Assembly (NCBI RefSeq): GCF_055900595.2
Contig: NZ_CM148325.1
Length of the DNA: 64,000 nt
Strand: one strand, 5' to 3'
Part shown: positions 1-20,816 of the stretch, piece after piece
How the letters are laid out: every line of letters starts with the position of its first letter
Numbering within the stretch: the stretch's first letter is position 1
The notes under the pieces: model-generated
The model's database searches: none
What the model was told of the DNA's origin: nothing
What the model saw: the letters and a program-made list of their open reading frames with translations, nothing else
Made by a program: the position numbers and the translations under genes

Positions 1-1069
1 CCAGTTCATGACATTTTTGCAGGGCGAAGGCAAACCAGCTTTTCACTTCTGCATCAAGACGCGTTTCCACGCTCAGGTCGATAGGGCTGTGCAGCAATGA
101 GCAGGAAGATGCCACCCACAAATCACGTTTGCCGACAATGTCCTTAATTTGCGCATATTTCTCGGTAAGATCGGCGCGCCAGACGTTACGACCATTGATA
201 AGACCAGCAGATAGCAGCCAGTCAGAAGGCAGACGCTTGTGCAGTTCAGCAACGTCATCTTTACCATGTACGAGATCGACATGCAGACCCTGAACAGGCA
301 GCGCAGTAATGGTGTCGAGATTTGGCGTTACGCCTTCAAAATAGGTAGTCAGCAGCAGTTTCACCTGGCCCTGGAGCGCGTCGTAAGCGGGTTTATAGGC
401 GTCCAGCCACGCCTGCGGCAGTTCCAGCACCAGCGCGGGTTCGTCGATCTGTACCCACTCAATGCCGCGTTTTGCCAGTTCTGCCAACACTTGCTGATAA
501 ACCGGCAGAATGTCGTTTAGCAGGCTCAGGCGATCAAACTGTTCACCTTTCACTTTACCCAGCCACAGGTAGGTAACCGGTCCCAGCAGCACGGGCTTGA
601 CCTTGTGGCCCAGCGCCAGCGCCTCGTCCACTTCCTCCAGCAGTTGCGTCCAGGTCAGTTTGAACTGTTGGCCTTTAACGAACTCCGGCACCATGTAGTG
701 ATAGTTGGTGTTAAACCATTTGGTCATTTCCGCTGCCGCCGCAGGTTCGCCAGTCGGCGCACGTCCACGACCAATACGGAACAGGGTGTCGATATCTACC
801 GAACCATCTTTGTTCTGGTGACGCGCCGGAACGTTACCCAGCAGCAGGCTGGTGGTCAGGACATGATCGTACCAGGCAAAATCACCCACCGGCAGCAGGT
901 CGATACCTGCTTGCTTTTGTTGATCCCAGTGACGAGCACGCAGTTCACGCCCTACCGCCAGCAGTTCTTCACGCGTGGAGTTCCCCGCCCAATAACTCTC
1001 TTGCGCTTTTTTCAGCTCGCGACGCAGGCCAACGCGAGGGAAACCGAGGGTGTGATTAAGAATTGTCAT
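1..1069 (-). CDS. metE: Cobalamin-independent methionine synthase MetE, N-terminal part only; the 3' end of the gene lies beyond the window start
   Basis: Minus-strand reading from ATG (plus 'cat' at 1067-1069) gives [21 protein letters not shown]..., which I recognise as the MetE N-terminus. Absent from the ORF track because no stop falls inside the window. Divergent from metR as in E. coli. Confidence 0.9.
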
Positions 1070-1186
1070 TATATGCCCCTTATGGAATTTTTAGTATTTA
1101 GCCGTCCAGATGTTTACACATCCATAATTGGCGGTTACTGTATATTCCTCAAGCGCAAATTATTCATGCCGAAGTGAAGGACTTTC
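1070..1186. promoter_or_regulatory. metE–metR divergent control region (expected MetR and MetJ operator sites)
   Basis: 117-bp gap between the divergent metE and metR starts. Contains met-box-like octamers (AGATGTTT, ACACATCC around 1108-1125) resembling the AGACGTCT consensus. Site positions were not verified. Confidence 0.45.
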
Positions 1187-2140
1187 ATGATCGAAGTAAA
1201 ACACCTGAAAACGCTACAAGCGTTGCGGAACTGCGGCTCACTCGCAGCCGCTGCGGCGACGTTGCATCAAACGCAATCCGCCCTGTCTCACCAGTTTAGC
1301 GATCTGGAACAACGCCTTGGCTTCCGGCTATTTGTGCGTAAAAGCCAGCCGCTTCGGTTTACACCGCAGGGAGAAATCCTGTTGCAACTGGCGAATCAGG
1401 TGCTGCCGCAAATCAGCCAGGCACTGCAAGCCTGCAATGAACCGCAGCAGACGCGCCTGCGCATTGCCATTGAGTGCCATAGCTGTATTCAGTGGCTGAC
1501 GCCCGCGTTAGAAAATTTCCATAAGAACTGGCCGCAGGTGGAGATGGATTTTAAATCGGGCGTGACGTTTGACCCGCAGCCCGCGTTGCAGCAGGGTGAG
1601 CTGGATCTGGTGATGACCTCCGATATTCTGCCGCGCAGTGGCCTGCATTATTCGCCGATGTTCGATTATGAAGTGCGTCTGGTGTTGGCACCTGACCATC
1701 CACTGGCGACAAAAACGCGAATCACGCCGGAAGATCTCGCCAGCGAGACGCTGTTAATTTATCCGGTGCAGCGTAGCCGACTGGATGTCTGGCGGCATTT
1801 TCTTCAGCCCGCAGGCGTTAGCCCGTCACTGAAAAGCGTCGATAACACCTTGTTGTTGATTCAGATGGTTGCCGCACGGATGGGCATCGCTGCTCTACCG
1901 CACTGGGTGGTGGAGAGTTTTGAACGCCAGGGTCTGGTGGTCACCAAAACCCTGGGCGAAGGCTTGTGGAGCCGACTGTACGCCGCCGTTCGCGATGGTG
2001 AGCAGCGTCAGCCGATTACGGAAGCGTTTATTCGTTCAGCGCGCAATCACGCCTGCGATCATCTGCCGTTTGTGAAGAGCGCGGAGCGACCCACTTACGA
2101 TGCACCCACAGTGAGGCCAGGATCACCAGCGCGCCTGTAA
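1187..2140 (+). CDS. metR: LysR-family transcriptional activator MetR
   Basis: 317-aa ORF beginning [45 protein letters not shown], an HTH LysR-type N-terminus matching MetR, divergent from metE. Confidence 0.95.
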
Positions 2141-2927
2141 TAAACGTTGGCCAGTGCGGCTGTTGGTGCCAGATAGCCAGGTTAACCAACAGCCCTGCCG
2201 GAACGTGCATATTATTCATAATGCCCAGCGTTCCGGCGTCCACCTGAGTCGCGCCGTAGTTCCACATAAAGTAGCCAATACCGGAAGCCACCACGCCAAG
2301 AAACACCAGAATGCCCCATTGCAGCGTGGTTTGCGGCATTTTCTGCGCATTTCCCAGCAAGAACCATGCAATCACCGCCACCAGGAACGCGCCAAGATAG
2401 AACCACGCAAAGGCGTTATGCTGCGGCATCGGGCGAGTTTCCATCAGGCGTTTGTAGCCCACCATGCCGATGGCAAAAGTGATATTGGAGAGTTGCACCA
2501 GCAACAGGCCGGTCCAGAAATGGTCAGTGACCTGATCATAGCGAATAATCCCGGCACCAATCACCGCCAACAAGGCGCTAAAAGCATAGCCCCAGCGCAG
2601 ACGGCGCTTACTCATGATGTCATAAATCAGCGTGATGTAGAGCGGCGTCAGTACGGTGAACAGCAACAGTTCGGAGACCGTCAGGTAGAGATAGGCGCGA
2701 AAACTCAGCATATACATCACGCCAAGCTGCATCGCGCCCACCAGCATATACAGACCGACCGTTTTCAGGCTATTGCCACGGGTACGCAGAAACGGCAGAA
2801 ACACGAGTGCCGCCAGGCCAACGCGCACCAGCACTGCAAAATAGCTATCGACGTGCCCCGCAAGGTACTCGCCATAAAAGCTAAAGGAGAAGGCCCACAG
2901 AATCGTGGTGATGATAAGTAGCGCCAC
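2028..2927 (-). CDS. yigM: Inner-membrane EamA/DMT-family transporter YigM (biotin uptake, BioP)
   Basis: The track ORF (2028..3002) is N-terminally extended. The polytopic membrane protein matches YigM (299 aa) if it starts at the GTG at 2925-2927 ([15 protein letters not shown]...). Its 3' end overlaps the metR 3' end by 113 bp. Confidence 0.85.
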
Positions 2928-3002
2928 AATGGAAAACTCTTTGATTAACGAGTATCCATTGTAGCGAAGTATCAGGTTGACAACTGACCAAATAAAGAAC
3001 AA

Positions 3003-3803
3003 TTACGATAAATAGAGTTTACGCAGATAATGCGGCACCGCGTCGTCGGCATTAGTACCAATCACTTCCAGCTCCGGATGCAGATCTTTCAGACGCTGGT
3101 GCGCACTGCCCATAATGCAGCCTTTACCTGCCATCGACAGCATTTCGGCGTCGTTCATCCCGTCACCAAAGGCAATACAATCTTTCAGACTGTAGCCCAG
3201 TTTCTTCGCTACCGCTTCCAGGGCATGGCCTTTTGAAACGCCACCCGCCATCACTTCCAGACAAGTTAGGGTAGAGAAGCTGACGTTGACGCGATCGCCC
3301 CAACGAGCGTTGATTGCCTGCTCCAGCGGCAGCAGTTGCTCATGGGAATCGCAGGTGAAGAACACTTTGCTGACGCCTTCCGGCTCCAGTAATCCTGGCT
3401 CATACAGCGCATATTTGAACACCGCTTCTTTAAAAAAGCGCATCTCTTCCGGGCGGTGGCGATTCATAAACCATTCGTCGTCGCGATAAACGTTAGTAAT
3501 GATGTCCGGGTTGTCGTTGACCACGCCAAACAGATCGCTGGCAATGTCGCGATCCAGGTTATGAGCAAAAATCAGATTGCCATCCAGATCGTGAACACGC
3601 GCGCCATTGGAGGTAATCATGTAAGACTTAATCTCCAGATTATCGCGAATTTGCCCTACATCAACGTGGTGGCGACCGGTCGCAAACACAAAGTTAATGC
3701 CGCGCGCGGTGAGCAGCTTCAGAGTTTCTTTGGCGTAAGGGGATAACGTATGGTCGGGAGAAAGTAACGTGCCATCTAAATCAGACGCAACAACCTGGTA
3801 CAT
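3003..3803 (-). CDS. yigL: HAD-superfamily sugar-phosphate phosphatase YigL
   Basis: Track ORF 3003..3929 trimmed to the internal ATG at 3801-3803, giving MYQVVASDLDGTLLSPDHTLSPYAKETLKLLTARGINFVFATGR (the HAD DxDGT motif), 266 aa. Immediately downstream of pldB, as in the pldB-yigL operon. Confidence 0.9.
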   Translation of the reverse strand: MYQVVASDLDGTLLSPDHTLSPYAKETLKLLTARGINFVFATGRHHVDVGQIRDNLEIKSYMITSNGARVHDLDGNLIFAHNLDRDIASDLFGVVNDNPDIITNVYRDDEWFMNRHRPEEMRFFKEAVFKYALYEPGLLEPEGVSKVFFTCDSHEQLLPLEQAINARWGDRVNVSFSTLTCLEVMAGGVSKGHALEAVAKKLGYSLKDCIAFGDGMNDAEMLSMAGKGCIMGSAHQRLKDLHPELEVIGTNADDAVPHYLRKLYLS

Positions 3804-3810
3804 AAGAAAT

Positions 3811-4833
3811 TTAAACCTCTGTAGAGCGGTTTCCGCTGGGTGAGTTATGCCTGTTGAAAAAATCAACAATGGCGTGGAGCGCGACTGAGCGCATTGCGTC
3901 CTTTTCAAAAAGGATCTCATGGTACGCACCTTTAATTACCAGCGGTCGTCCCCCTTCGACAGGATGGCCCGCAGCGGTGCGGAGTTCACAAAAACGGTCG
4001 TGCATGCGGTTATCCACCACGCGTTCCTCTTCAGCCTGCAAGAGAAGCGTTGGCGTGGCGTCATCACCCGCACCGGCTAACACCTGTTCGCCAGCCAGAA
4101 TACTTTCGCGTACCCAATGGTAGGTCGGCCCACCGACGCGAATCGTTGGGTCATCAGCATAGAAGCGTAAGTTACGTCGATATCGCTGTCTGCTGTGGGT
4201 CAGTACGTTGATAGCAAACGGCAACGCGCGCCAGCGCCCGGTGCCTATTGCATAGCCATCACGGAAACGGGGATGCGCTTCGGCCCAGTTAAGGATCTGC
4301 CGCGCCATAAATGACGGCATACGAATCACGATCCCAAACATTGGCGCAGTTAGCGCAATGGCGTCACATACACCTGGATGGCGTTGCAGAAATAACGTGG
4401 AGATCGCACCGCCCATCGAATGTGCCAGTATATAGCGCTTACGCCACGGACCGGGCTGGACCTCCTGTTGCCAGAATGCCGCCAGATCATCAACATAATC
4501 ATTAAAGCGATTAACATGCCCAAGATGCGGATCGGCTAACAGGCGACCGGAACGTCCCTGCCCGCGATGGTCGATGATTAAGACATCAAACCCCAAATGG
4601 AACAGGTCGTAGGCCAGTTCCGCATATTTTACGTAGCTCTCAATACGCCCCGGGCAGATGACTATCACCCGGTCATGGTGCTGTGCGCGAAAACGGACAA
4701 AGCGCACCGGAATGTCATCTACACCAGTAAACTCTGCTTCATCACGCTGACGCCAGAAATCAGTCAGCGGTCCCATGGTAAAAGCAGCAAACGCGTTTTC
4801 TCTTGTTTCCCAGTCTTTTTGCTGCTGAAACAT
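3811..4833 (-). CDS. pldB: Lysophospholipase L2
   Basis: 340-aa ORF (MFQQQKDWETRENAFAAFTMGPL...), alpha/beta hydrolase with a GHSMGG nucleophile elbow. Length and sequence match PldB. Confidence 0.95.
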   Translation of the reverse strand: MFQQQKDWETRENAFAAFTMGPLTDFWRQRDEAEFTGVDDIPVRFVRFRAQHHDRVIVICPGRIESYVKYAELAYDLFHLGFDVLIIDHRGQGRSGRLLADPHLGHVNRFNDYVDDLAAFWQQEVQPGPWRKRYILAHSMGGAISTLFLQRHPGVCDAIALTAPMFGIVIRMPSFMARQILNWAEAHPRFRDGYAIGTGRWRALPFAINVLTHSRQRYRRNLRFYADDPTIRVGGPTYHWVRESILAGEQVLAGAGDDATPTLLLQAEEERVVDNRMHDRFCELRTAAGHPVEGGRPLVIKGAYHEILFEKDAMRSVALHAIVDFFNRHNSPSGNRSTEV

Positions 4834-19602: not shown

Positions 19603-20493
19603 TCAGGCTGCCAGATCATCGTTTCCGATGGAAGCATAATAAGCTTTTTCTGCTTCTGCCGGAGGAGTATGGCCCAGCCTTCCCAGCAATCGTCGATTGT
19701 TATACCAGTCCACCCACGTTAGTGTGGCCAGTTCCACTTCTGCACGGTTTTTCCAGCTCTTACGGTGTATTACCTCCGCTTTGTAAAGACCATTGATGCT
19801 CTCAGCCATCGCGTTGTCATACGAGTCGCCTGTACTCCCTGTTGATGCCAGTAATCCGGCTTCTTTTAGTCGCTCCGTATAGGCCAGTGACACATACTGA
19901 GAGCCTTTATCGCTGTGATGGATGGTGCCAGACGGACGACGGGCCCACAACGCCTGCTCCAGCGCATCCAGCACGAATGTCGTTTCCATAGACGATGAGA
20001 CCCGCCACCCCACGATGTATCCGGCAAACACATCAATGATAAACGCCACATAGACGAAGCCCTGCCATGTGCTGACGTAAGTAAAATCAGCCACCCACAG
20101 CTGGTCAGGTCGTTCTGCCACGAACTGACGGTTTACGCGGTCGCCTGCGGCAACGGCTTTCCGGCTGATGGTCGTACGGACCTTTTTACCCCGGAGAACA
20201 CCGGCAAGTCCCATAACCGCCATGAGACGTGCCACTGTACATCTGGCCACCCTGATTCCTTCCCGTAACAACTGACGCCAGACTTTACGCACACCGTACA
20301 CCTGATGATTTTCATCGTATACGCGCTGTATCTCTCTCTTCAGCCAGTCGTCGTGCTGCGCACGGGCACTGCGTTTATCCGGATGATGTCGCTGTTGCTG
20401 ACAATGGTAATACGTTGACGGGGCAATATGCAGTTCGCTGCATACCGGTCCGACCCCGTACTGCTCACGCAGCTTATCCAGCAGTGGCATCAT
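19603..20493 (-). CDS. IS629-like transposase OrfB (DDE integrase/catalytic domain)
   Basis: 296-aa ORF ([33 protein letters not shown]...) with an rve-type catalytic core (…[31 protein letters not shown]…[10 protein letters not shown]…[16 protein letters not shown]). In the -1 frame relative to orfA. Confidence 0.9.
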
Positions 20494-20816
20494 TTTTTCC
20501 AGAGGCGGTCGAACTCCGCCTTCGCAAAATAAGCGGAAGCCTGGCGAAGGATATCGTTACTGCGGCGCAGTTCACGATTTTCACGTTCCAGCTCTTTCAG
20601 ACGCTGACGTTCAGCGCTGGTGAGCCCACCATCACCGCCCCCGGTATCCCGCTCATGCTGGCGAACCCAGACACGCAGAGTCTCCGGCGTACAGCCAATC
20701 TTTGGAGCAATGGAACAAATTGCCGCCCACTGTGAGTCATATTCATCCTGACTTTCCAGAACCATACGAATCGCCCGCTGACGGACTTCGGGGGAAAAAC
20801 GAGTATTTTTAGTCAT
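20490..20816 (-). CDS. IS629-like transposase OrfA (HTH and leucine-zipper protein)
   Basis: 108-aa [67 protein letters not shown]...[28 protein letters not shown]. Ends in the A-run CTCTGGAAAAAATGA, where orfB begins in the -1 frame. Confidence 0.9.

Follow-up and report, generated by a model that had tools for sequence, protein, structure and literature searches.

The tail-to-tail overlap of metR with yigM (bioP), a gene for a biotin transporter, in Escherichia coli: codon-level constraint, distribution and possible explanations

The metR-yigM locus

In the present study, we analyzed the convergent 3' ends of metR and yigM (bioP) in a window, by which we mean the whole stretch of 64,000 nucleotides taken from contig NZ_CM148325.1 (assembly GCF_055900595.2). 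The following features are located at this site.

1187..2140, plus strand: metR coding sequence, a LysR-type regulator of 317 aa, with a TAA stop at 2138-2140
2028..2927, minus strand: yigM/bioP coding sequence for a 299-aa biotin transporter of the EamA/DMT family; start GTG at 2927, stop TAA at 2028-2030
2028..2140, both strands: metR/yigM tail-to-tail overlap, encoding MetR aa 281-317 plus stop and YigM aa 263-299 plus stop

The sequence-only reading had placed the metR stop at 2140 on the plus strand and the end of yigM at 2028 on the minus strand, with about 113 bp in common, and this geometry was confirmed. The shared DNA is exactly 113 nt with both stops and 107 nt (2031-2137) without them, and RefSeq agrees, as the same 113-nt overlap is annotated in L001 (metR 1588-2541, bioP 2429-3328), which is identical to the window, and in K-12 MG1655 (bioP 4011076-4011975 on the plus strand, metR 4011863-4012816 on the minus strand). 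The region was found in 5422 of 5426 complete E. coli genomes. No earlier in-frame stop was present in either the yigM or the metR frame of the window sequence. As a mechanical ORF, the yigM frame is open up to TTG 3002, the annotated start being GTG 2927. According to the coordinates, codon positions 1, 2 and 3 of metR lie opposite yigM positions 1, 3 and 2, respectively.

Both partners are conserved protein-coding genes, as judged from their domains, their RefSeq naming and the dN/dS of the gene bodies. In MetR, the HTH_1 domain covers aa 5-63 and the LysR_substrate domain aa 86-288; aa 1-92 are identical to PDB 5FO5, the solved DNA-binding domain of E. coli MetR, and homology with the solved regulatory domain of Neisseria meningitidis MetR (PDB 4AB5) reaches aa 296. 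YigM, which RefSeq names as a biotin transporter, is a DMT transporter with two EamA domains, whose EamA match stops at aa 275. Its last hydrophobic stretch (aa 262-275) ends at V275 and is followed by HRKW. In addition, a 255-codon open frame without RefSeq annotation was observed at 2154-2921 on the plus strand, antisense to and wholly within yigM; shadow ORFs of this type are common opposite genes for membrane proteins.

The overlap as such is already known, being both annotated and published. In the Keio design (Baba et al. 2006), the metR deletion reportedly removes all but the last 6 codons and the stop. Côté et al. 2016 (mBio, PMC5120140) described the yigM-metR overlap as substantial and stated that deletion of metR also disrupts yigM. 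They found synthetic lethality with bioA and sensitivity to a BioA inhibitor for the Keio metR deletion as well as for the yigM deletion. Mutations in metR and bioP are shown by these data to be genetically coupled, the metR deletion also inactivating bioP; the deletion was uncomplemented, so that the loss of MetR itself may formally contribute.

Codon-level constraint and the two stop codons

A genome scan with YigM provided the material for comparison, from which the best 80 of 568 confirmed loci were taken, one per species and all from Enterobacteriaceae. The alignment was built from 80 metR-yigM sequences, that is, 79 of these loci and the window, and it has 1741 columns with zero gaps. 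The locus left out (L066, Leclercia adecarboxylata NCTC13032, 3800-4750) carries an intact yigM of 299 aa and has metR only in several frameshifted pieces, which is probably an assembly error or a pseudogene. The dN/dS values were calculated by the Nei-Gojobori method and pooled over all pairs of the 80-sequence alignment, as follows.

2030-2077, MetR frame, aa 282-297: dN/dS 0.10
2031-2078, YigM frame, aa 284-299: apparent dN/dS 2.55
2094-2141, YigM frame, aa 263-278: dN/dS 0.17
2093-2134, MetR frame, aa 303-316: apparent dN/dS 2.39
metR body, MetR frame: dN/dS 0.05
yigM body, YigM frame: dN/dS 0.08

The position of the substitutions in the 80 sequences follows the same division. From 2028 to about 2074, variation falls at metR third positions, and the metR second positions, which are the yigM third positions, are almost invariant. 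From about 2094 to 2140 the pattern is reversed and variation falls at yigM third positions. At about 2079-2093 the periodicity ceases to follow metR and begins to follow yigM, and within GCGGAGCGACCCA (2081-2093) all three codon positions are invariant or nearly so. In the five middle codons (2079-2093), both frames give a dS of about 0.13 and a dN of about 0.04, the dS of the gene bodies being about 1.0; synonymous change is suppressed in the overlap in this alignment. Dual coding in the strict sense was not found, as just about 15 nt (2079-2093) are constrained in both frames. Within the overlap, each stretch belongs to a single gene, apart from about 15 nt that are used by both. The three segments are listed below.

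2028..2078: MetR-owned segment, encoding MetR aa 281-297, with the YigM tail (aa 284-299) read passively
2079..2093: doubly constrained core, encoding MetR (S)AERP (aa 298-302) and YigM WVAPR (aa 279-283)
2094..2140: YigM-owned segment, encoding YigM aa 263-278 (the end of the last helix and HRK), with the MetR tail (aa 303-317) passive
2027..2032: MetR codons F281-I282 (TTT ATT), invariant in 80 of 80 sequences (79 of the best 80 of 568 loci, plus the window)

On the metR strand, the yigM stop TAA reads TTA (2028-2030) and falls within the MetR codons F281-I282. Whichever of the two Phe codons stands before an A, the yigM frame acquires a stop (TTC-A gives TGA), so that the Phe-Ile dipeptide of MetR forces the yigM stop. 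For yigM to stop earlier, a codon beginning with A must come after an xTT, xCT or xTC codon in metR, and between I282 and the core the MetR sequence permits this at V296-K297 only. In one genome (L024, MGYG-HGUT-00110), Val296 is encoded by GTC and followed by AGG at the equivalent of window positions 2072-2077, which gives TGA in the yigM frame and a YigM of 284 aa; the change in the Val296 codon is synonymous for metR. On the other side, the metR stop sits in the YigM codons I263-T264, and a change of residue 264 to Leu or Val gives a MetR of 318 aa.

The length of the tails was compared with the 39 gene-sized ORFs of the window, in which stops in the antisense phase occur at 0.041 per codon with a median open run of 15 codons; the chance that 15-16 codons stay open in the overlap phase is about 0.5. 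The tails which create the overlap (15 codons in MetR and 16 codons in YigM) are about as long as this median open run. The overlap is real, but its length is within chance expectation.

Conservation and separation across Enterobacterales

The overlap was present in 79 of 79 informative other Enterobacteriaceae genomes, drawn from the best 80 of 568 loci, with a length of 68-116 nt. Protein lengths were taken from direct translation of the 80 sequences (79 of the best 80 of 568 loci, plus the window). By this comparison with orthologues, which the sequence-only reading had proposed as a check on the yigM stop, the pair of 317 and 299 aa was found to be kept in most sequences.

71 of 80 sequences: MetR 317 aa, YigM 299 aa, overlap 113 nt
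6 of 80 sequences: MetR 318 aa, YigM 299 aa, overlap 116 nt
2 of 80 sequences: MetR 312 aa, YigM 299 aa, overlap 98 nt
1 of 80 sequences (L024): MetR 317 aa, YigM 284 aa, overlap 68 nt

Further lineages with and without the overlap were as follows.

Yersinia (L085): overlap 113 nt
Dickeya (L088, L082): overlap 98 nt
Sodalis (L090): overlap 95 nt
Salmonella lineage (L092): YigM 285 aa, overlap 71 nt
Serratia marcescens (L086): yigM and metR apart, 36-nt spacer
Gibbsiella (L091): yigM and metR apart, 327-nt spacer
Erwinia toletana (L087): DUF1456 gene (L087 3410-3886) inserted between yigM and metR

The arrangement is not retained wherever both genes are, since Serratia, Gibbsiella and Erwinia have separated them and kept both, with a YigM of 286-287 aa and a MetR of 312-314 aa, the tails of which bear no relation to the E. 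coli ones. In Serratia and Erwinia, MetR is alignable up to ...HLPFVRDA(A/S)R and YigM up to ...LWVH(R/K)RW; past those points their tails are unrelated to the E. coli tails, and the core motifs are partly retained as separate copies. More distant YigM relatives (51% identity) stand in other gene contexts without metR. The overlapping lineages have an identical phase and junction, so that the most parsimonious reading is one ancient origin followed by two or more separations. On this reading, the overlap would have arisen once, before the split of Enterobacteriaceae, Yersinia and Pectobacteriaceae, and would have been lost at least two times, the overlap being the ancestral state.

It had been held beforehand that a shorter true C-terminus of YigM would do away with the overlap. 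The functional end is indeed shorter, and natural YigM proteins of 284-287 aa exist, but L024 and L092 still overlap by 68-71 nt, because the MetR tail still crosses the last helix of yigM. These two genomes, L024 and the Salmonella lineage L092, may be regarded as natural tests, showing that YigM can apparently lose its last 14-15 residues. Taken together with the substitution patterns, the natural variants suggest that the E. coli tails of MetR and YigM would be dispensable.

Some further observations were made in the separated lineages and around the pair. In Serratia, an inverted repeat occupies the 36-nt spacer from stop to stop (L086 3359-3400; arms of 15 nt, 80% complementary, loop of 12 nt), and by its sequence it may act as a bidirectional terminator. 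When the spacer was examined for an origin by tandem duplication of the overlap, just a weak 19-nt direct repeat of 74% was present. In Erwinia toletana (L087), a terminator-like hairpin (AGCGGAGCGG...CCGCTCCGCT) lies directly past the yigM stop. The gene upstream of yigM, for which L085, L086, L088 and L090 were compared with window 2928-3929, is variable: E. coli and Salmonella have yigL at this place, Yersinia and Serratia a Mem_trans gene, Dickeya pagP, and Sodalis a gamma-glutamyltranspeptidase gene. The trio yigM-metR-metE is constant although this upstream neighbor varies, so that yigM probably has its own promoter.

Transcript ends and explanations of the overlap

The statement that each transcript is antisense to the 3' end of the other follows from the geometry, as full-length mRNAs are necessarily complementary over at least 113 nt. 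It was likewise borne out that no terminator can sit between metR and yigM, the genes having no intergenic DNA. Where a bidirectional intrinsic terminator lies between two convergent genes (Ju et al. 2019), both transcripts are said to end in one place. Such terminators need an intergenic hairpin with A/U tracts, whereas the E. coli pair has neither intergenic DNA nor such a site, a G+C-rich hairpin flanked by A/U tracts near the stops being absent at 2028-2140. The consensus scan of 1000-3200 gave no intrinsic terminator near 2028-2140 and one weak site far inside metR, and no Rfam family was detected in 1000-3200 at E <= 1. On the plus strand, the RNA past the metR stop could form two stable hairpins, at 2158-2194 and 2197-2238, inside the yigM coding sequence. 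As terminators these were rejected, having no U tract and a fold z-score of just -2.2. The hairpin at 2158-2194 is largely kept in the 80 species (from the best 80 of 568 loci, plus the window), with some changes from G-C to G-U or A-U, and conservation of the YigM residues accounts for most of the retained pairs in both hairpins.

The RNA just past both stops has more C than G, a composition that goes with Rho loading sites (Adams et al. 2021, PMC7815308). In the same work, one Rho termination region is recorded at this locus.

About 2250..2350, around window position 2299 (MG1655 4011704, plus strand), yigM strand: Rho termination region (Adams et al. 2021, PMC7815308, Supplementary file 2)

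This region was classed as internal to yigM, with a Rho score of 5.07 and p = 1.3e-12, and its peak lies inside yigM, 271 nt ahead of the yigM stop; the 800-nt windows used to call it leave its position coarse (PMC7815308). On the yigM strand, untreated cells gave 98 reads upstream and 21 downstream (downstream/upstream ratio of 0.21), and cells treated with bicyclomycin gave 300 upstream and 326 downstream (ratio of 1.09) (PMC7815308). With windows of 800 nt, this result says only that Rho stops transcription on the yigM strand somewhere around the end of yigM, limiting antisense RNA over metR. The metR transcript may likewise end by Rho-dependent termination. Among the Term-seq 3' ends of Adams et al. 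2021 (PMC7815308), none is named for metR or yigM and none lies in 4011600-4012199, and the SMRT-Cappable-seq supplements have no entry for metR or yigM. A genome-wide capture of dsRNA cleaved by RNase III (the p19 study) likewise lists neither gene in its supplements.

We consider it very probable that the overlap is a tolerated historical accident of two abutting genes and not a dedicated regulatory device. According to this explanation, metR and yigM would converge without a spacer, their functional cores abutting at about 2079-2093, and each frame would continue antisense across the conserved codons of the partner up to the first stop which the partner happens to offer. The resulting tails, a hydrophilic one of 16 residues in YigM and a proline-rich one of 15 residues in MetR, would not be selected for their own sequence. 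The overlap would be maintained passively, as the conserved amino acids of the partner leave almost no path to an earlier stop; since these amino acids are conserved, both stops would be locked and the overlap held in place. Each mRNA would extend into the ORF of the partner and end by Rho-dependent termination instead of a hairpin terminator. With each stop locked in conserved codons of the partner, selection on the tails or antisense regulation need not be invoked, and the locus may serve as a case study that a long and deeply conserved convergent overlap can be passively held.

Retention of the overlap in several families might also mean that it has itself been selected. One such explanation is a selected cis-antisense device, in which metR and bioP would antagonize each other, either through colliding polymerases or through cleavage of the 113-bp duplex by RNase III. 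Complementary 3' ends forced by geometry, the lack of a terminator at hand and the maintenance of the overlap across families are in its favor, and three steps of biotin synthesis use SAM, which makes a metabolic link with methionine conceivable. If it were true, the methionine/SAM regulon would be coupled to biotin uptake. However, Serratia, Gibbsiella and Erwinia split the genes yet kept both, and we argue from these three lineages that overlap-based interference is not required. One or the other protein frame accounts for all of the conservation in the overlap, neither gene is in the supplements of the RNase III-cleaved dsRNA capture, and Rho curbs read-through on the yigM strand (0.21 untreated versus 1.09 with bicyclomycin, PMC7815308). 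Among the papers searched in full text, none linked yigM to antisense regulation. We regard a selected device of this type as improbable. Transcriptional interference between methionine regulation and biotin uptake, which the sequence-only reading had raised, is possible in principle, but no support for it was found and we regard it as improbable. Reciprocal control in particular, in which derepression of metR at methionine/SAM scarcity lowers bioP, or the reverse, via collision, Rho or RNase III, seems to us very improbable; if it were true, Enterobacteria which keep the overlap would differ physiologically from Serratia and Erwinia.

It may also be proposed that the overlap was selected for economy or for mutual Rho-dependent termination, the untranslated antisense RNA of the partner acting as a Rho loading site. 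The excess of C over G past both stops, the Rho termination region on the yigM strand (PMC7815308) and the absence of a hairpin terminator are in agreement with it. On the other hand, Rho is the default in E. coli downstream of genes without an intrinsic terminator, so the overlap is unneeded for this purpose; lineages with a spacer exist, one of them with an inverted repeat across both stops, and a saving of 113 nt is negligible. We give this proposal a low probability. That the overlap is an annotation artefact, one gene truly ending earlier, has practically no probability: most overlaps >60 bp in prokaryotic annotations are of this kind (Pallejà et al. 2008, PMC2478687) and the functional ends of both proteins are shorter than the ORFs, but stops, unlike starts, are not predicted and neither frame stops earlier, both lengths are kept in 71 of 80 sequences (79 of the best 80 of 568 loci, plus the window), bioP no longer functions properly when metR is deleted (Côté et al. 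2016, PMC5120140), and YigM aa 263-278, encoded within metR, are under purifying selection, the YigM residues encoded there being required for function.

Passive maintenance, which we prefer, can be placed beside other overlapping or converging genes. According to Pallejà et al. 2008 (PMC2478687), true overlaps >60 bp are possible in the convergent orientation only. The conserved long convergent overlaps of Rogozin et al. 2002, as summarized by Pallejà et al. 2008 (PMC2478687), are alike in that conserved genes on opposite strands have common 3' ends, and in that summary their proposed origin is loss of a stop codon and 3' extension into the neighbor. Among the 54 possibly real cases of Pallejà et al., most are conserved among very close species only, whereas metR-yigM spans several Enterobacterales families; the pair is not in the supplementary lists of that study (PMC2478687). 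The metR-bioP pair belongs with the few true long overlaps of convergent genes, and its conservation is unusually deep. The holD-rimI overlap (Pallejà et al. 2008, PMC2478687) is similar in being a true overlap that Escherichia, Salmonella and Yersinia all retain, its shared part being highly conserved at the nucleotide level, but it is co-directional, covers 32-56 bp and involves translational coupling, whereas metR-yigM is convergent and covers 113 nt. Interference between convergent promoters, as outlined for coliphage 186 pR/pL by Callen et al. 2004, and the excludons (PMC7154746) are also alike, as they are convergent units whose RNAs or polymerases meet. What sets those systems apart is a demonstrated cis effect, the dominance of a strong promoter over a weak one, or a long antisense RNA.

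Côté et al. 2016 dealt with the same locus and used the overlap only to explain their genetic result; the present study adds the two passive tails with the doubly constrained core of about 15 nt, and the taxonomic distribution. The main value of the overlap is practical, and a new question would arise only if interference were demonstrated. Deleting, inserting into or recoding the last ~110 nt of metR alters bioP too, and vice versa, and the overlap has already confounded one genome-wide genetic screen (Côté et al. 2016, PMC5120140). It should be kept in mind in Tn-seq, CRISPRi and Keio work on methionine or biotin phenotypes.

In the rest of the window, the Rfam search gave the following matches, all on the minus strand.

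20419-20535: match to the ALIL pseudoknot, 121 bits
31857-32063: GlmZ sRNA, above the gathering score
35703-36136: cluster of four tRNA genes, above the gathering scores
52721-52820: trxA 5' UTR thermometer, above the gathering score

The ALIL family marks the programmed-frameshift site of IS3-family transposases, and an insertion sequence may lie at 20419-20535.
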